Shown here: positions 4,681 through 62,706 of the stretch, one piece after another | Position numbering within the stretch: the stretch's first letter is position 1 | Layout of the letters: each line of letters starts with the position of its first letter | Sequence record: NC_052659.1 | DNA: 64,000 nt | Direction: 5' to 3' (one strand) | From: Escherichia phage nieznany | Made by a program: the position numbers and the translations under genes | The notes under the pieces: generated by a model | Seen by the model: only the letters and a program-made list of their open reading frames with translations | What the model was told of the DNA's origin: nothing | Databases searched by the model: none

Positions 4681-4944
4681 GTGTGTGCCGAAGGGGTGAA
4701 AATGAATATTCCAGATGATTTTTATACCCACGAGAACTCGTGGAGAAAGGCTCTTGAACGTCTTATCGAACTGGAGCCTGTAACTGGTGAACCTGACGAA
4801 GATAACCGTGGGTTTTGGGAACATGAATTACGTGCATTCAATCACGCTTATGAGCAACTTCATAAGGGTTGTCCCCATGATGGTGCTACCTACTATGATA
4901 TGAGTGGGCGTGAACGCTGTGGAATGTGTGGAGGTGATATTTGA
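4681..4944 (+). CDS. hypothetical protein (C-terminal CxxC)
   Basis: 87 aa ORF. Confidence 0.35.
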   Translation: MCAEGVKMNIPDDFYTHENSWRKALERLIELEPVTGEPDEDNRGFWEHELRAFNHAYEQLHKGCPHDGATYYDMSGRERCGMCGGDI

Positions 4945-5126
4945 GAAAACTTATTGTACCATGGCTCTATTGCCCTTGTGGGAGCAGTAAGATTGAAGTA
5001 GAGACTGAAAAAGGTGATGAGTTATACCTCTATTATGGCGACAAAGTGAAATGCCTTGTTTGCGGAAATGAAGGTGAAATCGAAACAGATGATTGCTGCG
5101 CGTATGCAGTGTGGGAGGATGAATGA
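4941..5126 (+). CDS. small zinc-ribbon-like protein
   Basis: CPCG...CLVCG cysteine pairs; 61 aa. Confidence 0.35.
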   Translation: MRKLIVPWLYCPCGSSKIEVETEKGDELYLYYGDKVKCLVCGNEGEIETDDCCAYAVWEDE

Positions 5127-5347
5127 GTACAGCTATTTATGTAAGAGGCGTGAGTGAACACGAGCAATGTCTTTTCTCTTTTGGGGAAGGTGTAGAGATT
5201 GAGGATATGTATCAAGAGATTTGCGAAGTCTTGGATAATGAAGGATTCACTATTGTAAACTCTTTTCTTGTTACATCATCTGAATATTTAGAGGTTGATT
5301 TAACACAGATGATGTTTAGTGTCCAAGAAACAGTTTTTGATTGGTAA
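5123..5347 (+). CDS. hypothetical protein
   Basis: 74 aa ORF with ATGA overlap. Confidence 0.35.
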   Translation: MSTAIYVRGVSEHEQCLFSFGEGVEIEDMYQEICEVLDNEGFTIVNSFLVTSSEYLEVDLTQMMFSVQETVFDW

Positions 5348-5356
5348 GGAGAAATA

Positions 5357-6472
5357 ATGCTGCAATTAAATCCTACATTGTATGGTAAAGACACCAAAGG
5401 TAATATTAAAGAATGGTCTGTCTATACGGATGGTGCAACTGTTACAGTTGGTCATGGTCGTCTTGGTGGGAAGATTACTACGAAATCCTATGAAGCTGAA
5501 GCAAAAAACATTGGTCGTTCCAATGAAACAACACCGGAAGAACAAGCTGAACTTGAAGCTTTTGCCAAATGGACAAAACAGTTAAAGAATGGCTATTATA
5601 AAACAAAAGAAGAAGCTGAAAACCATGTTCCTTCCACACCAATGAAATGCCAGGATTATAAAGATTATCCTGAAAGGGTTGTGTTCCCTGGTTATGCACA
5701 ATACAAACTGAACGGGTTACGTTCTATGATTAACATGAAAGGGGAGTGTTTATCAAAAGCTGGGGAAGTGTACAACCTGCCACCTCATTGGAAAGGTATT
5801 CCAAACTTTATTAGTGAAGTTGTTGGTCATCCTCTTGATGGTGAAGTGTTTGCTGGGTTAGGTGTCCTTAGTCTGCAACAAATTAACAGTGCTTGGAAGA
5901 AGCATAATGCAAATACACCTTTGCTGAATTATTACGTATACGATATTCCAGTTCCAGGTCTACCGTTTGAAAAACGTGTTGATGCTCTTGCTGCTCTTAA
6001 GGCAGTAGTTGAAGATTATGGTCTTGACGAGCTTATTTGTGTAGTTCATACAGAGTATATTGAAAACCAAGAACAGTTTGATGCTTTCTATGAAAAAGCT
6101 TTACTTGAGAAAGCTGAAGGTGTAGTATATCGTAATGCTCACGGAGTTTACGAATTTGATAAACGTTCTTATGACGTTATTAAACGTAAGCCTCGCCACA
6201 CCCTTGAAGTTAAAGTAATAAATTCAAAAAGTGATAAAAATGGTGATGGAGTGTTGACAGGTGAGATGGAAAATGGTAAAGTAGTCGAATTCTTAATGCG
6301 TAAAGATGCTCATGAGACTATCAATTATCGTAAAGCAGAGAATGCTTCTACCTTGATTAATCAGTTCGTTGAAATAGAGTATGAAGAATTTTCAGATGAA
6401 GGTATTCCAACAAAACCTGTTGGTGTTCGTATTCGAGAAATGATCCCAGGCACTTGGGAACCAGCAGAATAA
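5357..6472 (+). CDS. ATP-dependent DNA ligase-like nucleotidyltransferase
   Basis: Motif I variant KLNGLR (KxDGxR with D->N), motif III LDGEVF, motif V EGVVYR, KRK near motif VI; 371 aa like small phage ligases. Confidence 0.6.
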   Translation: MLQLNPTLYGKDTKGNIKEWSVYTDGATVTVGHGRLGGKITTKSYEAEAKNIGRSNETTPEEQAELEAFAKWTKQLKNGYYKTKEEAENHVPSTPMKCQDYKDYPERVVFPGYAQYKLNGLRSMINMKGECLSKAGEVYNLPPHWKGIPNFISEVVGHPLDGEVFAGLGVLSLQQINSAWKKHNANTPLLNYYVYDIPVPGLPFEKRVDALAALKAVVEDYGLDELICVVHTEYIENQEQFDAFYEKALLEKAEGVVYRNAHGVYEFDKRSYDVIKRKPRHTLEVKVINSKSDKNGDGVLTGEMENGKVVEFLMRKDAHETINYRKAENASTLINQFVEIEYEEFSDEGIPTKPVGVRIREMIPGTWEPAE

Positions 6473-19185: not shown

Positions 19186-19501
19186 TATCGAATGGCGTAT
19201 GTTACAGGGTGCACCATATGATAAATGGAAAGAAATATTTGGAGACGACCCACAAGTTGAAGACCAGTTCGATGGGGACTTTAATTGGTTTCTCTGTGAA
19301 GGTTTGGGCTTGGAAAACATTTCCCCGTGGTACGATGCAGATCCTGAAGATTGTGTCTTCGGTGTCAAGCTGTGTAGCGGCTGTGGTGCTTGTGCCATAG
19401 ACCTCACAAGCTTAAATAAAAAAGCAAATGAGATCTATTTTGAACTACTTAATAAGTATAATATTGAAACTGAAACATTAGTGTCACAAAACGTCTGGTA
19501 A
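19175..19501 (+). CDS. hypothetical protein
   Basis: 108 aa ORF. Confidence 0.4.
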   Translation: MGIDIEWRMLQGAPYDKWKEIFGDDPQVEDQFDGDFNWFLCEGLGLENISPWYDADPEDCVFGVKLCSGCGACAIDLTSLNKKANEIYFELLNKYNIETETLVSQNVW

Positions 19502-19510
19502 GGAGAACTG

Positions 19511-20503
19511 ATGCGCTATCTGGTAACAGGTGGTCTTGGTTTTATTGGGAGCGCCGTGGTGCGCTCTCTTTGTCAAGATCCTAATAACGAAGTTTTTGTC
19601 GTTGATAAGATGGGCTATGCAGCAGATATTGAGAATGTAGGCGATATCACTCACGTTAAACTAAGCATGACAGATTTGGCAAACGAAACCCAGGTCAAAA
19701 GTTTAGTAGTAGAGTGCAATCCTGACTTCATCATTCACTTAGCGGCAGAAAGTCATGTGGATAATTCTATCAAGAATCCACGAGTTTTCATCGACTCCAA
19801 TATTATCGGTACATACAATTTATTGGAAGCTGCAAGGCTCCTCCCAAAAAATAAACTGAAGATGTTCGTACACGTCTCCACAGACGAAGTGTACGGCGAT
19901 ATGGCAGACTCTGGCGTTCCCTTTACCGAAGAGACAGCTTATGCCCCTTCAAGCCCGTACAGTGCGTCTAAGGCAGCATCTGACCATCTTGTGAAAGCTT
20001 GGCACCGCACCTACGATTTGCCTGTTGTGATAACCAACTGCTCCAATAACTTTGGGCCTTATCAACATCCAGAAAAGCTGATCCCAAAAATCATCACAAG
20101 TATCTTGACGAATAAAGAGATTCCGGTGTATGGTAAAGGCGACCAGGTGCGAGACTGGCTTTTTGTTGAGGATCATGCGCGAGCTATTCTTCAAGTGGCA
20201 ACAGGTGGAGAACCAGGTCAAACGTATAATGTTGGAACACGTAATCCCAAAACCAATATGGAGATCATCTATATGGTTTGTGACTATATGGATACTGTAC
20301 ATCCAGAAGCAGTAACCTACCCTTCTTCCAACTTGATAACTTTTGTTGAAGATCGTAAAGGACATGACTTGCGTTATGAAATCAATCCTTCTAAGATAGA
20401 GTCTGAACTGGGCTGGAGTGCAAACTCTACATTTGAACAAGATCTCTACTCAACGATTGAATGGTACTTAAACAACCCTCAATGGTGGAGTGAGAAAATT
20501 TAA
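19511..20503 (+). CDS. rmlB: dTDP-glucose 4,6-dehydratase (RmlB)
   Basis: N-terminal [11 protein letters not shown] Rossmann motif; SDR-type dehydratase; first gene of rml cluster. Confidence 0.85.
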
Positions 20504-20511
20504 GGAGGGTT

Positions 20512-21390
20512 ATGAAAGGTATTATTTTGGCGGGAGGAAGTGGAACCCGCCTTCATCCGGTAACACGCAGTGTGAGCAAGCAATTGCTCCCTGTGTATGA
20601 CAAACCCATGATCTACTACCCTTTATCGGTATTGATGTTGGCTGACATTAAGGATATTTTAATCATCACCACACCAGGTGATCAGGAAGACTTTGAGTAT
20701 CTTCTCGGAGATGGGTCTATGTTTGGGATAAAACTCACTTACGCAATCCAATCCGAGCCACGAGGTCTTGCGGAAGCTTTCATCATAGGTAAAGATTTTA
20801 TCGGAGAAGACTCTGTTGCTCTTATTTTAGGTGACAACCTATTCTTCGGACAAAGCTTTGGTAAACTACTGATTAACGCCAGTGAGATGGTAGATGTTTG
20901 GGGAGGAGCTTGTATTTTCGGGTATTTGGTGAAAGATCCTGAACGATTCGGTGTGGTTGAATTTGGGAGTAATCGTCAAGCTATTTCTATTGAAGAGAAA
21001 CCTGAAAATCCTAAATCAGATTATGCTGTCACAGGTTTGTATTTCTATGATAACTCTGTTATTCAACGTGCATTAGAAGTAACCCCTTCCGCGCGTGGAG
21101 AACTGGAGATCACTGATATCAATCGCAGCTACCTAGAAGACAGGAAGTTACAAGTGGAAGTTCTCGGACGAGGATTTACTTGGCTTGACACAGGAACACA
21201 CGCCAGTCTGATGGAAGCTGGTCAATTCGTGCAGACTATTGAGAACTGTCAAGGATTGAAGATTGCGTGCCTGGAAGAAATTGCTTTCAAAAAAGGGTGG
21301 ATTTCTTTAGAGACTTTGGTGTATCATGGAAACTCACTGAAGAAAACAGAGTACGGGCAATACCTACTCAAATTAGCGGAGAGAAAATGA
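20512..21390 (+). CDS. rmlA: glucose-1-phosphate thymidylyltransferase (RmlA)
   Basis: N-terminal [18 protein letters not shown], near-identical to the RmlA signature. Confidence 0.9.
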
Positions 21391-24540: not shown

Positions 24541-25044
24541 TTGATGGGTGTAGCAACAATAGCTATCGGAAGAAGCGGTATAGATGAGTGCTATCAAACG
24601 GGACTCGTAAAACCTAACGAATTTCGTCAAATTTGTGTAAACCATATTGAAAAAGAGATTGCTCTTACTTTAGAGAATATGACCCTCCGAGATAAACTGG
24701 AAATGTTTAAATGTTGGTGTCTAGGAGAAGATTGGCTTTTAAACCATTTTCAAGAACTTTCTGATAGTAAAGAAAGCTTGTTTGATTGTATAATAGGAAT
24801 AGCTGGCTCCGATCCTAGCCTTCTGCACATAACAGAAGAAGAGGCGAAGTTACTGTTCTTAAGTAATTTGTTTAATAAGAAAGCACTGCTTGTTCGTGAT
24901 TGCAGTGATCTTCTTAATAACCCGCTCGCAACGTCTGATCAAATTTTTGTTGACAAAGAGACACTACGTGCGATAGAATACATCTGCAAATATGTGAATG
25001 GCGGGAAAGCGGTTCTTAAAACATTAACAGAGGAGGAAGAATAG
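24541..25044 (+). CDS. hypothetical protein
   Basis: 167 aa ORF directly upstream of, and overlapping, the HslV-like gene. Confidence 0.45.
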   Translation: MMGVATIAIGRSGIDECYQTGLVKPNEFRQICVNHIEKEIALTLENMTLRDKLEMFKCWCLGEDWLLNHFQELSDSKESLFDCIIGIAGSDPSLLHITEEEAKLLFLSNLFNKKALLVRDCSDLLNNPLATSDQIFVDKETLRAIEYICKYVNGGKAVLKTLTEEEE

Positions 25045-25736
25045 TGACGACAATTATTGCAACCAAAAATAAGATTTTGAGTGACGGTAAGGTAACTTTT
25101 GGTGGACGTGTAGATTCTATTAATTTCAAAAAGGTCCGAAAAATTGGAGATTACCTTGTGGGTGGTGCTGGTCGTCTGACCTCCGTGCTTTCTTTCTTTC
25201 AATGGTTTGAACAAAATCTACAGTGCGAAGCAGCACGTGATGCTGTCCCTGGTTTGATGATTCACTCTGATCCAGATAAAGAAGATGAAGAGTTTATTGC
25301 ACTTGTTGTTCATCCAGACGGACGTATTTTCCTGCACGAAGGTAACAACCCAACACGTGCATATCCGATTGATGAAGAATATTATGCGGTAGGAAGTGGG
25401 TCAGACTTTGCTTTAGCTGCTCTTGATGCAGGGGCAACACCAGAACAGGCTATGGAAGTAGCTAAAAAGCGAGATGCTTTTTCTGGTGGTGAAACATTTA
25501 TTGAAGAACAAGACGAGATTATTGAATTAACAGACGATGATTTAGAAAACTTCTCCAAAGAAGAATTGATCAATCTTTTGAAATTCGGTAATCCCTACGG
25601 TGAAGAAGAACCTCGTAACGTGGCAGGCAACGAGGCGGATACTGAAGAAAAATATGTTGCAGAAAACAACTTGACTTCTAAATCTGAAAATATTAATCTC
25701 GTAAATGTGGCGGATTTCGAAGGAACCGCTATTTAA
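25044..25736 (+). CDS. HslV / proteasome beta-subunit-like Ntn-hydrolase peptidase with acidic C-terminal extension
   Basis: GTG start; M-TTIIA N-terminus (catalytic Thr after Met removal), KKVRK, VGGAG and YAVGSGSDFALAA match HslV TTIV...KKVRR...AGGTADA...GSGG as recalled. Confidence 0.7.
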   Translation: MTTIIATKNKILSDGKVTFGGRVDSINFKKVRKIGDYLVGGAGRLTSVLSFFQWFEQNLQCEAARDAVPGLMIHSDPDKEDEEFIALVVHPDGRIFLHEGNNPTRAYPIDEEYYAVGSGSDFALAALDAGATPEQAMEVAKKRDAFSGGETFIEEQDEIIELTDDDLENFSKEELINLLKFGNPYGEEEPRNVAGNEADTEEKYVAENNLTSKSENINLVNVADFEGTAI

Positions 25737-58394: not shown

Positions 58395-58937
58395 TCACAA
58401 ATATCGTCTTTGCGGTATTTTGTCTGGGAAAAGTATTTCGATCAGTTTATTATGATATTTGCCTAAAAGATTCTGCCCTTTCCAGGTAGCAGGGTTTAGC
58501 ACCCCTGGTTCATACATTCCCATTCCAATACCGTAAACCTTATCGTAAGGACTTGCTTCAACAAACGTTTTGTATTGGTAAAGGTGTAAGTCTGCATACA
58601 AATCTGGATTCTGTACATATTTCAAGCATAAGCCTCGCATAACAATACGCTCACGGTTCTCTTCCCACATATCATTATTAAAACCAGATACCGCTCGACC
58701 CATACGTTTGTAGTATGCTTGTTTCCTCTCGTTGTCACGTATAGTTGAGTGATCAAGGATAGCTGCTGCAATCGCATGATCCTTGAACAGCAAAGCCTTA
58801 CGCCACATCATATATTGCTCAACACAACAGAAAGTCTCATTGTAACCTGGTTCAGTTTCTGTAAAGGGTGCAATATACCAATTACTAAACACATCTTTAT
58901 GTGAAAAGAAGAATACATATTCATCAGTTATTCTCAT
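58395..58937 (-). CDS. NADAR / YbiA-like (DUF1768) domain protein
   Basis: N-terminal YVFFFSHKDVFSNWYIAPF and EQYMMWRKALLFKD resemble the NADAR family signature. Confidence 0.5.
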   Translation of the reverse strand: MRITDEYVFFFSHKDVFSNWYIAPFTETEPGYNETFCCVEQYMMWRKALLFKDHAIAAAILDHSTIRDNERKQAYYKRMGRAVSGFNNDMWEENRERIVMRGLCLKYVQNPDLYADLHLYQYKTFVEASPYDKVYGIGMGMYEPGVLNPATWKGQNLLGKYHNKLIEILFPDKIPQRRYL

Positions 58938-59149: not shown

Positions 59150-59492
59150 AAACTGCGTCTGCGTCGATGAGTTTGTGTTTGTTGTTCCGCATGTAGTCTA
59201 AGATAAGTAGACGTTTATTGTATCTGGAGAGATTATGACCCTCTTTTCCGCCATAGTCAAAATATTTTGCAAGATCTTTACACTCAAACAAAATCAGTTC
59301 GGGAGTTTCTTCACACTGGTCTGTCTGGTACACTTGACGAATGATCATGTATACATCGTCGTCTTCCGCTAAATGCTCTACTGGTCCACATCCAGCAGGA
59401 ACAAATTCATAGTCCCATCTGATCAGATGTTTCTCTACTGCTTCAAAGAAATCCATCCTTTCATTGCGCATAATTTGAACGTCAACTAACAT
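59127..59492 (-). CDS. hypothetical protein
   Basis: 121 aa ORF. Confidence 0.4.
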   Translation of the reverse strand: MLVDVQIMRNERMDFFEAVEKHLIRWDYEFVPAGCGPVEHLAEDDDVYMIIRQVYQTDQCEETPELILFECKDLAKYFDYGGKEGHNLSRYNKRLLILDYMRNNKHKLIDADAVYGYWWMD

Positions 59493-60946
59493 GTTTCCTC
59501 CTCTCTCATTATTCCACCTGCTTGGTTGATAGCACTTAAGACGATAGCCAAATCCTCGCGCAGGAAGGTTTCACTATGACCATCTTTCATGTGCAAGCGT
59601 TCTACACAGCCAATAGACGGTAGAATCTGATCAGTCTTAGACTTTAGCTTACTCTCTAACGCCCTGCAAGCTTGGTAGGACGGCAGATCGAACAATGCTA
59701 TACGGCGCATAGAGTAATTGTTGTTTGCATTCTGCCCTTTGATCCTGATATCACTGTCCTTTGCAATCCCCAACTTGTAAGCTCCCGTGTCTTCTCCGTA
59801 CTCATCAAGAATAATATTGATGTAAAATTCTTGCATATTTCTGTTCTTACAGCCTGGACAACCTTTCCCATTGAGATAATCGGTAGGTGTGATCGTTTGC
59901 TCTCCATGCTCCCTACATAGATATTTAAACTTGCTGTTATTGCTTACCTTATCAATGAATCCTATAAATTGATCCCCTCGTTCCTGGCAAGCTTTGGTCA
60001 TACGGTAGGCCCATTGTTCAGGAGTGTAATGATAATATTTAGAACAACGGCAAGGAAGGCCACCCCTTTTCAAATGACTCATCTTCATCTCAAATTTATT
60101 ATCGCATAAGCCTTCTTTACAATAATCATCCTCTGCACATATAGGACATTCTACAATCCAGTAAACCTGACGACCTAATCTATCTACTCTATCGCTACGA
60201 TAATATTTACGCTCTACATTATCAGGACAAGCTTTTATAAAATCTTCAACATGTTGTTTATCCTCCATAGTATTCCTTTGTTTCGTCATTTCTCTTTGAC
60301 AACTGTAGCATCCAGTCCCTTGTTTAGCACTGTTTACAGTGGTAGTGCACCATTGACCATGAACCTTACACTCACAAATCAACTTAGTGCGGGAACCGTT
60401 CCACGGTTCCACATAGCCTCTAACAATCCAGGGTTTTTCTTTATAAGCTTCTTCTACTTCTTCTTTATGTTTCTCCCATGCAATCGATGTTCTTTCTCTG
60501 TTTGCTTCTCCCATACACTTCCTGCATCCACTCCCGTTTTTCGCAGAAGATATAGAAGTAGACCTCCACTCCCCATGTAAAGCACAACAACAAACCAGTT
60601 TAGTATTCCATCCTTTCCATTCTCCGTGCCATCCTGTAACAGTCCAAAACTTACCTGCCTGATTGTAAGTGGTTTGCACTTCTTCTTTATATTGCTCCCA
60701 GGTTTTTGATTTGTTTATAGATACTGCTTTACTTATAATCTCCCTACCGCATTCTGGACAACCCCTCCCTAGTTTAGCGGTATTTATGCTTGTTGTTTTC
60801 CATTCTCCATGCAGAGCACAGATGCATCTAAGTTTAGTTTTATTGCCGTTCCACGGCTCAATATAATCTACAACAGTCCAAGACTTACCTTGATAAGCTT
60901 GTTTTATATCTGTTTTATATTGTTCCCAAGTGACTATTTTTGGCAC
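59486..60946 (-). CDS. zinc-finger repeat protein (three or four about 65-aa Cys/His modules) with possible C-terminal GIY-YIG-like nuclease domain
   Basis: Repeated W..Y.EPWNG..TKL.C.C..HGEW.T....AK.G.GC..C modules; C-terminal FYINIIL-x9-YKLGIA-x6-R resembles GIY-(10)-YIG-R. Confidence 0.35.
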   Translation of the reverse strand: MPKIVTWEQYKTDIKQAYQGKSWTVVDYIEPWNGNKTKLRCICALHGEWKTTSINTAKLGRGCPECGREIISKAVSINKSKTWEQYKEEVQTTYNQAGKFWTVTGWHGEWKGWNTKLVCCCALHGEWRSTSISSAKNGSGCRKCMGEANRERTSIAWEKHKEEVEEAYKEKPWIVRGYVEPWNGSRTKLICECKVHGQWCTTTVNSAKQGTGCYSCQREMTKQRNTMEDKQHVEDFIKACPDNVERKYYRSDRVDRLGRQVYWIVECPICAEDDYCKEGLCDNKFEMKMSHLKRGGLPCRCSKYYHYTPEQWAYRMTKACQERGDQFIGFIDKVSNNSKFKYLCREHGEQTITPTDYLNGKGCPGCKNRNMQEFYINIILDEYGEDTGAYKLGIAKDSDIRIKGQNANNNYSMRRIALFDLPSYQACRALESKLKSKTDQILPSIGCVERLHMKDGHSETFLREDLAIVLSAINQAGGIMREEETC

Positions 60947-61034
60947 ACCTCCCCCTTTAGCTATTAGTGCGAGCCTACAACAAAAGAATAACTAAAATCC
61001 CTCCATAACAAATGCCCCTTGCGGGGCATCTTTA

Positions 61035-62174
61035 TTAGAACACGCTACCAAGTGTAGTGGAACGTTGTGTTACAGGCTCCAGCACCACTCGCAAAGTGTT
61101 TCCTGGTGTAGTGCTCATAACCAGAATCTTACCACCTTCAATCAGATCACAAGTTAGACCATCAGCCGTTGCACATAGATCAATATGTGGATCACCATCT
61201 TCATCCAGGATAACATAACTGTTGGTTTCCATTGCTTCCACTTCATCATCTTTCAAACTTTGTAGATAGATGTTCAGGGAACAAGCACCCGACAAAAACT
61301 TAGTAGGGGTGAAGTCGTGCCAGTTATTGATCCAATTCACCTTCAAGGTTTTGCCATTAGCTACGATAGAAGCCACATTCCATTTAGCATCGTTCCCTAA
61401 AGAAATACCCATCATTTCAAGACATTCTTTAAAAGTCATTTTTGGATAGAAATTCAATTCTTCTACAATGCCTTGAATAACATCGAAAGACAACTCTGTG
61501 CTAACATCCCATAAACGTTGGAAGTTATCTACGTGCTTTTTATTTACCAAGTTCTTATCCAAGTAATCTAACATAGTTTCACTAGACAGTTTATCGTAAT
61601 TGAAACTGTAGTAGATACGACTAGGACGGTTTACAAAATATTCCGAGATATAACCACTATTTTTAGTGAGGATGTAAAGTTTATTCCCACTTCCTGTTCC
61701 ATCCAACAAGGTCAACAGTGCTTCCTGATCTTCTTTCTTAGCGTACACTTTATCAAATTCGTCAAATAAAACAACAGCACGATCTGTAATTTTACTCATA
61801 AATTCTAAGAAGCCAGCATCTGTGTAAGGCTGTGTAACCAAAATGGTTGGAATACCTAAACCTTCTGTGGACATTAGAGACATGCTAATCAGTTTAGCTA
61901 ACATCGTCTTACCACTGCCTTTTGTCCCTGTCAGTAACACCCCAGTATTTTTACCTTCTTTACTACGACGAGCAAATGTTTTAATAACATGTGCGGCGCG
62001 ATTTTTAGTTTCCCCATAAAGAGTGTTCGGAAGAGAGAAACTTTCACCACGCACTAAAGAGTAGTTACCGTGCGGATCGCAGTTGACAACCCAAACTCCA
62101 GCAGGAAGTTTATTAGCTTCAACGCCATATTCCTTATTTACAACAGCTACATCTCCAAAAATAGTGTATTTCAT
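61035..62174 (-). CDS. AAA-family ATPase
   Basis: Walker A GTKGSGKT, Walker B VVLFDEFDK, sensor-1-like ILTKN and RPSRI. Confidence 0.6.
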   Translation of the reverse strand: MKYTIFGDVAVVNKEYGVEANKLPAGVWVVNCDPHGNYSLVRGESFSLPNTLYGETKNRAAHVIKTFARRSKEGKNTGVLLTGTKGSGKTMLAKLISMSLMSTEGLGIPTILVTQPYTDAGFLEFMSKITDRAVVLFDEFDKVYAKKEDQEALLTLLDGTGSGNKLYILTKNSGYISEYFVNRPSRIYYSFNYDKLSSETMLDYLDKNLVNKKHVDNFQRLWDVSTELSFDVIQGIVEELNFYPKMTFKECLEMMGISLGNDAKWNVASIVANGKTLKVNWINNWHDFTPTKFLSGACSLNIYLQSLKDDEVEAMETNSYVILDEDGDPHIDLCATADGLTCDLIEGGKILVMSTTPGNTLRVVLEPVTQRSTTLGSVF

Positions 62175-62530
62175 TAGAACGTTTCTCCTTTTAAAATAAT
62201 TACTGTAAACTTTGCAGTTTTTTCACTCTTAATATTCTTGACTAATAAGTATTCTCCTCCAGGGGCATCTTTGTATTGTTTAATAGCTACTATTTCATTT
62301 TTGCAAGTAGCTATAATCGAATAAAAAGGACGTTCCGTGTTATCTTCTTTTCCCGTATATGCCTCAACATCTTTACACTCTTCTAGAACACCATTCCCAG
62401 GTGTATAGTAAAACTTGTTGCCTGTGATCACAACATCTTTACCAATATCTGTTTTAACTGCTACAAATTTTTGAGCGTAAGTGGTGAAGCTTACGGTAGC
62501 CAGCAATGTGGCTAAGATTAGTTTTTTCAT
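62174..62530 (-). CDS. secreted protein (signal peptide)
   Basis: GGAGGGAAG then ATG 62530; MKKLILATLLATVSFTTYA signal. Confidence 0.45.
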   Translation of the reverse strand: MKKLILATLLATVSFTTYAQKFVAVKTDIGKDVVITGNKFYYTPGNGVLEECKDVEAYTGKEDNTERPFYSIIATCKNEIVAIKQYKDAPGGEYLLVKNIKSEKTAKFTVIILKGETF

Positions 62531-62541
62531 AAACTTCCCTC

Positions 62542-62706
62542 CTATTCCCACAACATACAAATCGCAGCGACAAACATATTAGCAATAGCCGCACCAAGAA
62601 CTATAAACATCGCCAGTTCAGAACAATATTCACCAACCAAAGGGGATACTATTGCACAGAGTAACCCCAATGTCAAACACAAGTTGATGATGAAGTTTAA
62701 AATCAT
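62542..62706 (-). CDS. small membrane protein (54 aa)
   Basis: AAGGAGAGAAT then ATG; hydrophobic manual translation MILNFIINLCLTLGLLCA... Confidence 0.3.
   Translation of the reverse strand: MILNFIINLCLTLGLLCAIVSPLVGEYCSELAMFIVLGAAIANMFVAAICMLWE

Follow-up and report, generated by a model that had tools for sequence, protein, structure and literature searches.

The ATPase gene and its AAA core

We analysed a gene for an AAA-type ATPase in a 64,000-nucleotide stretch (below, the window means the whole of it) from the Phapecoctavirus (Stephanstirmvirinae) coliphage Escherichia phage nieznany (NC_052659.1). The open reading frame (ORF) called in the initial annotation stood as called, with an ATG start on the minus strand. 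The gene is real, intact and already annotated, and its product is an ordinary AAA-type ATPase. The protein has the same sequence as the 'putative ATPase' of Escherichia phage Schickermooser (100% identity) and occurs with at least 98.7% identity in 62 more phage records, the identity being at least 99% in 61 of the 63. The coding sequence and the elements of its AAA core, all on the minus strand, are as follows (aa, amino acids).

61035..62174, minus strand: coding sequence of the AAA ATPase, 379 aa plus stop; member of PHROG 2376, same protein as Schickermooser_00251 'putative ATPase'
61407..62018, minus strand: AAA+ alpha/beta core plus four-helix lid, aa 53-256, from Pfam, matches in the PDB and the AlphaFold model
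61905..61928, minus strand: Walker A GTKGSGKT, aa 83-90; family signature GxKGSGKT
61818..61832, minus strand: pore-loop-1 position QPYTD, aa 115-119, between beta2 and alpha2; family motif P-[YFW]-x-G
61749..61763, minus strand: Walker B DEFDK, aa 138-142; D138, E139 and K142 invariant
61659..61673, minus strand: sensor-1 ILTKN on strand beta4, aa 168-172; T170 and N172 invariant
61614..61628, minus strand: arginine-finger segment RPSRI, aa 183-187, counterpart of the classical-AAA 'RPGR'; R183, P184 and R186 invariant

A search for relatives returned 735 homologues at an expect value (E) of 1e-5 or lower, and conservation was scored on a weighted alignment of 193 homologues with position-based weights, using the true protein numbering. 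The four motifs noticed beforehand (GTKGSGKT, DEFDK, ILTKN and RPSRI) are all present, and they are invariant or near-invariant across the family. Conservation reached 1.00 at G83, G86, G88, K89, D138, E139, T170, N172, R183, P184 and R186. The Walker A stretch G83-x-K85-G-S-G-K89-T90 is near-invariant, and Walker B reads D138-E139-F-[ED]-K142-x-Y144, its hydrophobic strand being VVLFDE (aa 134-139). N182-R183-P184-[SG]-R186 is invariant or nearly so, as are Y53-G54 in the N-linker and Q150, L154, D158-G159 and Y189. The lid carries the motif [SN]229-F230-D231...E238-E239-x-N241-R-Y243; a sensor-2 arginine was sought in it, in the 193 homologues and in the model, and none was found, as in classical AAA proteins. 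A degenerate pseudo-ATPase was ruled out by the invariance of all catalytic residues. At the pore-loop-1 position, 96% of the weighted sequences have Y, F or W as residue 117; position 119 is G in 68%, and the residue between them is T, S, H or A. An aromatic residue whose identity varies is what would be expected of a substrate-gripping pore loop.

We predicted the structure of the protein with AlphaFold2 from a 41-sequence alignment (mean predicted local distance difference test score, pLDDT, 85.9; predicted template modelling score, pTM, 0.72). The model consists of a five-stranded N-terminal domain, a five-stranded AAA core (beta1-beta5) with four lid helices, and an alpha/beta C-terminal domain. 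Together with the alignment it places N172 at the end of beta4 and R183 and R186 in the segment that follows. The loop from Walker B to alpha3 is short in the model, as is the connection between beta2 and alpha2, and we therefore describe the protein as classical-AAA-like with a minimal core.

Profile and structure searches agree on the class. The only Pfam family clearly past its gathering score was AAA (PF00004; E 8.7e-7, 29.9 bits against a cut-off of 21.2); RNA_helicase (PF00910) fell exactly at its cut-off and the other P-loop families were under threshold. PHROG 2376 ('ATPase') matched with E 4.2e-111 over residues 1-372, against positions 1-358 of the 363 in the profile. A sequence search of the PDB gave weak matches only, all of them to classical AAA domains (Rix7, Afg2/SPATA5 and p97/VAT). 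Foldseek returned 724 PDB matches at E≤1e-3, and the best 50 of these were all classical AAA proteins (Bcs1, YjoB, Rpt1-6, NSF/Sec18, FtsH, Cdc48, Rix7, Afg2 and Mpa); no clamp loader, DnaA/DnaC, RuvB or HslU/ClpX-type protein was among these 50. The initial annotation had called the protein a classical AAA module rather than a clamp loader or helicase, and the Pfam score, the PDB matches and these structural neighbours bear this out.

The protein shares with the classical AAA ATPases (FtsH, p97/Cdc48, Rix7/Afg2, NSF and Rpt/PAN/Mpa) Walker A and B, the sensor-1 Asn, the 'RPxR' double arginine, an 'LLxxLDG' helix ahead of beta4, a lid with S-x-x-D and no sensor-2 Arg, and an aromatic residue at the pore-loop-1 position. 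It differs from them in that identity is just 14-21%, its loops between beta2 and alpha2 and from Walker B to alpha3 are far shorter, and Walker A reads GxKGSGKT instead of GPPGTGKT; its N- and C-terminal domains are unrelated to theirs, and it has a single AAA module with no fused protease and no HbYX motif. Bcs1 and Bacillus subtilis YjoB, which also have one AAA module after a compact N-terminal domain, gave the best structural E-values (2e-8). The template modelling score (TM-score) to them was only about 0.4 and the identity 15-16%, however, and the phage protein has no membrane anchor and has an extra C-terminal domain and tail that are absent from both.

Other AAA+ classes fit less well. 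The protein resembles clamp-loader, DnaC and Hda proteins in its minimal core, short loops and weak profile matches, but these matches were restricted to the N-terminal part of the core and scored 14-19 bits in NCBIfam against cut-offs of 190-280; the RFC and DnaX models gave 12-15 bits against cut-offs of 250-969, and PHROG profiles of the clamp-loader and loader type had E of about 1e-4 to 3e-3 (about 1e-4 for the clamp loader). In alignment and model, the marks of a clamp loader are absent: the protein has SRI instead of SRC and lacks both a sensor-2 GDxR and a collar domain. A clamp loader or helicase loader is ruled out by the profile scores and the structural neighbours. HslU/ClpX-type marks are absent too, as there is no pre-sensor-1 hairpin (the alpha3-beta4 link has 6 residues), no I-domain and no sensor-2 Arg, and no HslU, ClpX or Clp-type profile was among the Pfam and NCBIfam matches listed at the E-value limits used. 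The NCBIfam PAN and Mpa models scored 12-15 bits against cut-offs of 500-750, and with regard to PAN, Mpa and Rpt proteins the model has no coiled coil and the C-terminus, ...GSVF, has no HbYX motif and no penultimate Tyr. Among the curated bacterial families of NCBIfam and the defence systems of PADLOC, no match came near a cut-off; the best in PADLOC was mad8 (E 4.5e-5, 21 bits), and the others were short stretches, mostly near Walker A.

Flanking domains, the aromatic tail and the PHROG 2376 family

The core is flanked on both sides by parts that the initial annotation had left unassigned, and profile searches of Pfam, NCBIfam and PADLOC likewise gave them no assignment.

62031..62174, minus strand: small N-terminal beta domain, aa 1-48; five short strands, pLDDT 81-93; conserved G7, G17, G26, L40 and P49
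61065..61406, minus strand: family-specific C-terminal alpha/beta domain, aa 257-370; pLDDT above 90
61038..61064, minus strand: flexible C-terminal tail ...TTLGSVF-COOH, aa 371-379; pLDDT below 50; conserved terminal Phe; candidate docking motif

Modelled separately (aa 256-379), the C-terminal domain had a pLDDT of 86, with a core above 90. It found no structural relative in the PDB, and its sole matches in BFVD were the C-terminal parts of other family members, encoded by Erwinia, Salmonella, Proteus and Lactobacillus phages. The sequence of this domain diverges very fast, identity falling to about 22% beyond the immediate clade. On the evidence of the models, the C-terminal domain is a family-specific fold.

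The terminal Phe is invariant in the 41-sequence alignment although the tail is predicted to be disordered. We collected tails from a context set of 80 related loci in 26 lineage groups, in which ORFs were clustered by all-versus-all BLAST and 251 neighbouring proteins were searched against Pfam; the endings across these groups include ...NFFDAF, ...NYWGAF, ...DRDAF, ...FRGAF and ...LSSVF. Among 139 independent representatives of clusters at 50% identity, the last residue is Phe in 33%, against a background of 4.9%, and hydrophobic in 78%; position -2 is Ala or Leu in 51%, and aromatic residues are enriched at -4 to -7. Judged by its sequence, the conserved aromatic tail looks like a short docking motif.

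PHROG 2376 is a very large, phage-only and uncharacterised family. Of 1.84 billion cluster representatives searched with a profile, 4,898 matched at E≤1e-3; at E≤1e-30 there were 2,948, a number that counts clusters at 50% identity. The architecture is uniform: the N-terminal beta domain is followed by the AAA core, the family-specific C-terminal domain and a flexible tail that is aromatic and usually has Phe as its last residue. Nearly all of the best 150 members are 345-440 aa long and match in one stretch from near the N-terminus, with no fusions among them. Among isolated phages the family was found in 393 records, at least 170 of them from Gram-positive hosts, and a second, very divergent ATPase as the query gave the same number of records (393) and an identical breakdown by organism. 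These phages include Phapecoctavirus and rV5-like coliphages, GAP32-like jumbo phages, Aeromonas, Proteus and Salmonella phages of about 90 kb, Herelleviridae of Enterococcus and Bacillus, large Lactobacillus and Lactococcus phages, Staphylococcus 6ec-like phages and crAss-like phages.

Two observations on individual members came out of this survey. The rV5-like phages (Vequintavirinae) carry two diverged ATPase paralogues, whose identity to the window protein, itself present in a single copy, is about 64% and 43-44%; the second paralogue ends in ...GAGYNY or ...GGRSY and not in ...SVF (pairs on the same contig: L009/L018, L010/L019 and L011/L015). In Salmonella phage SeKF_80 (OR863363.1, L003) an intact homologue of about 400 aa (MEQQHFVARGKN...ERLFS) is encoded at about 4940-6150 on the plus strand, where the record puts a 438-aa 'hypothetical protein' on the opposite strand, probably a strand mis-annotation.

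The HslV-like peptidase

The window also encodes an HslV-like peptidase (25044-25733, plus strand), which matches the Pfam family Proteasome and carries a long acidic extension at its C-terminus; its start, (V/M)TTI..., would fit an N-terminal Thr nucleophile. The initial annotation had taken the ATPase to be the only candidate unfoldase in the window and had suggested it as a partner of this peptidase. No further ORF of the window matches the AAA-core profile of the family, which agrees with the first of these points. The second would make the two proteins a phage two-component protease, the tail of the ATPase docking in the manner of HslU and the ring feeding unfolded substrates to the peptidase. 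The C-terminal tail of HslU docks into HslV, and the phage ATPase is like HslU in belonging to the AAA+ ring ATPases and in having a hydrophobic C-terminal tail; its pore-loop aromatic residue is conserved, and the flexible tail with its hydrophobic or Phe end could in principle dock onto a ring partner. Both genes are found here and throughout the Phapecoctavirus/rV5-like clade, with 105 Escherichia phage records per search and shared contigs, and a 'proteasome component' gene lies 9 kb from the ATPase homologue of an unrelated Ochrobactrum phage.

Against this, the two genes of the window are separated by 35.3 kb and belong to different gene blocks on opposite strands, and their phyletic patterns are discordant. 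The window peptidase as the query found relatives in 213 phage records (Escherichia 105, Caulobacter 28, Vibrio 17, Aeromonas 15, Klebsiella 10 and Rhizobium 10), and the HslV-like protein of Ochrobactrum phage OC found 163, mostly from Salmonella (88) and Escherichia (27) phages of about 110-125 kb. The organism summaries of these searches held just two records from Gram-positive hosts (Geobacillus), compared with at least 170 for the ATPase, so most of those ATPase phages lack an HslV-like gene. Caulobacter, Vibrio and Salmonella, in whose phages the peptidase is common, each had fewer than 8 ATPase records. The only phages seen to have both genes are those of one related clade (Stephanstirmvirinae, Vequintavirinae and close relatives) and a single Ochrobactrum phage; a scan of IMG/VR for the HslV-like gene in close relatives covered the same clade only. 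No peptidase recurred among the 251 neighbours from the 26 lineages. In addition, HslU belongs to an AAA+ clade other than that of the classical AAA-type phage ATPase, the tail is kept in lineages that have no HslV-like gene, and a 110-aa domain separates the AAA ring from the tail. We consider it very unlikely that the ATPase works with the HslV-like peptidase and, as a property of the family, the partnership is not supported by these sequence comparisons. HslV-like genes themselves are widespread in phages, including Caulobacter phages such as phiCbK, and one jumbo phage genome that encodes HslV is reported to have no HslU (PMC7823757).

Genomic company and proposed function

Next we considered the surroundings of the ATPase gene, first in the window, where it is bounded by two signals.

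62185..62190, minus strand: Shine-Dalgarno sequence AAGGAG, 10 nt upstream of the ATPase ATG
61012..61029, minus strand: probable intrinsic terminator, a GC-rich hairpin (ATGCCCC-GCAA-GGGGCAT) followed by TTGTTAT, 5 nt past the ATPase stop

The ATG (62172-62174) shares a base with the TAA stop of the upstream ORF (62174-62176), giving TAATG, and translation of the ATPase is therefore probably coupled to that ORF. The Schickermooser record likewise annotates a terminator at the hairpin 3' of the gene; with the hairpin and TTGTTAT after its stop forming a probable terminator, the ATPase gene would close its transcription unit. It is the final gene in a leftward-reading run of small ORFs, which lies in the auxiliary, non-structural region of the genome.

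Several features of the window were noted on the way. The upstream ORF (62174-62560, minus strand) encodes 128 aa with a signal-peptide-like N-terminus (MKKLILATLLATVSFTTYAQ) and has no match in Pfam. On the other side, the minus-strand gene at 59486-60946 encodes 486 aa that match the CapR homology domain three times (PF21817, E 1e-28), in repeated Cys-rich HGEW...GxGCxxC units, and that include a distinct C-terminal part; the record of phage nepoznato labels this protein 'endonuclease'. GC skew switches sign at about 36 kb, from positive to negative, where the gene blocks switch from the plus to the minus strand. Relative to nepoznato, the window has about 2.1 kb of extra DNA at about 19290-21378 (plus strand) with two ORFs of 330 and 292 aa, which by eye look like RmlB (dTDP-glucose 4,6-dehydratase) and RmlA (glucose-1-phosphate thymidylyltransferase) and would enlarge the dTDP-rhamnose gene set annotated nearby.

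Across lineages, no protein-coding neighbour was conserved in the 80 loci. The best family, metallophosphoesterase, was present in 8 of the 26 groups at scattered positions, and the Pfam search of the 251 neighbours found no family in more than about 5 lineages. The ATPase is a solo gene in auxiliary regions, without a conserved protein-coding partner. In crAss-like, Staphylococcus and Lactococcus phages it sits in a replication/recombination module: between primase and Holliday-junction resolvase genes and an exonuclease gene in the crAss-like phage cr109_1, between RecJ and a resolvase in Staphylococcus 6ec, and downstream of helicase, primase and RecJ in Lactococcus AM1. These positions, one record annotated 'putative DNA replication protein' and the weak profile matches to a clamp loader, a DnaC-like loader and Hda would fit an accessory ATPase of replication or recombination that loads or remodels a replisome component, its tail serving as a sliding-clamp-type or similar docking peptide; tails such as ...KFNFDAF presumably resemble the C-terminal clamp-binding peptides of T4-like phage proteins. 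However, the profile matches are as low and as confined as described above, the best 50 structural neighbours are classical AAA proteins throughout, the sensor-2 Arg, SRC motif and collar domain are missing, and in the window and in most lineages replication genes are not adjacent to the ATPase. We consider such a role unlikely.

Transfer RNA (tRNA) genes recurred near the ATPase. Of the 26 lineage groups, 11 have tRNA genes no more than 10 kb away, and in 7 the distance is about 500 bp or less. Several loci have arrays of 17-33 tRNAs within 10 kb, some of which abut or enclose the gene: in Enterococcus phage EfV12-phi1 (L004) the ATPase gene lies inside the array and in GAP32 (L006) among the tRNAs, and further array loci come from IMG/VR (L013, L034, L036, L056, L064-L067 and L085). 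The other recurring company comprises genes of nicotinamide adenine dinucleotide (NAD) salvage (NAMPT, NMNAT/NadR and NUDIX), PNK, RNA ligase, macro and Ro60/TROVE proteins and metallophosphatases; in Proteus phage 3H10_20 an RNA ligase gene is directly upstream of the ATPase.

In the window, a NADAR-domain protein (Pfam E 3e-35) is encoded at 58395-58937 on the minus strand, 2.1 kb downstream of the ATPase. Its N-terminus, MRITDEYV, is close to the MRITDKYV encoded by the cloning primer for NADAR^Bas60 (PMC11257639), a protein that is reported there to counter the DarTG1 defence. On sequence grounds the window protein is probably a homologue of the anti-DarTG1 NADAR of Bas60, and its gene an anti-DarT gene.

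The ATPase might, then, act on the axis of translation, tRNA and RNA repair, or counter a host defence that targets this axis, for example by dismantling an anticodon-nuclease or other defence complex. The tRNA genes and arrays, the PNK, RNA ligase, NAD-salvage, macro and Ro60/TROVE genes of several lineages and the probable anti-DarTG1 NADAR homologue all point in this direction. We nevertheless regard it as highly improbable, since the 64-kb window has no tRNA genes, Pfam and NCBIfam detect no RNA-binding domain, and the association is positional only and could reflect shared early/middle expression or clustering of accessory genes. The expected frequency of tRNA adjacency, about 5% or less per lineage, is our own rough estimate and no computed null, and the lineages are not fully independent. 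Taken broadly, the genomic company suggests a role in host take-over, counter-defence or nucleic-acid metabolism in early/middle infection and not in virion assembly.

We propose that the ATPase is a predicted catalytically competent, ring-forming ATPase of the classical AAA+ type and most likely an ATP-driven protein remodeller, a reading that we hold to be on balance probable. It would assemble into a hexamer-like ring, because trans-acting arginine fingers make sense in an oligomer only. Powered by ATP hydrolysis, its aromatic pore loops would take hold of a stretch of the target polypeptide and pull on it, and the target would thereby be remodelled or disassembled. The ring of N-terminal domains, the variable C-terminal domain or both may pick the target, and the terminal aromatic tail may dock onto a partner or a neighbouring protomer.

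Several points weigh against this proposal. The connection between beta2 and alpha2 has just 6 residues and no helical insertion, and the motif is [YFW]-x-G instead of the canonical aromatic-hydrophobic-Gly, so that threading of a polypeptide is plausible but not assured. The homologues checked from Gram-positive and crAss-like phages have no Phe tail, and the C-terminal domain is missing as well from two of them, which are 259 and 272 aa long; docking by the tail therefore cannot be universal. The structure prediction covers a single chain only, the gene context is heterogeneous and points to no specific target, and a literature search found no study of any PHROG 2376 member, the papers on Bas60 treating other genes.

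A more specific form of a remodelling role is that PHROG 2376 is a phage-specific AAA+ disassembly machine, the aromatic tail of which docks onto a ring-shaped or oligomeric partner before the target is dismantled or degraded. The partner would be a host complex related to defence or translation; in the coliphage clade it could instead be the HslV-like peptidase that the phage itself encodes. We think this quite unlikely; if true, it would explain why the ATPase recurs in tRNA arrays and beside the RNA-repair, NAD-salvage and anti-DarT genes of unrelated phages.

For the window, the outcome is mostly clarifying, in that the idea of a phage-encoded HslUV-like protease is left without comparative support. 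For the family, which comprises nearly 3,000 diverse clusters from coliphages, jumbo phages, phages of Gram-positive hosts and crAss-like gut phages, the target of the ATPase would fill one of the wider gaps in the set of genes that large virulent phages have in common, and finding it could reveal a new mechanism of host take-over or counter-defence.

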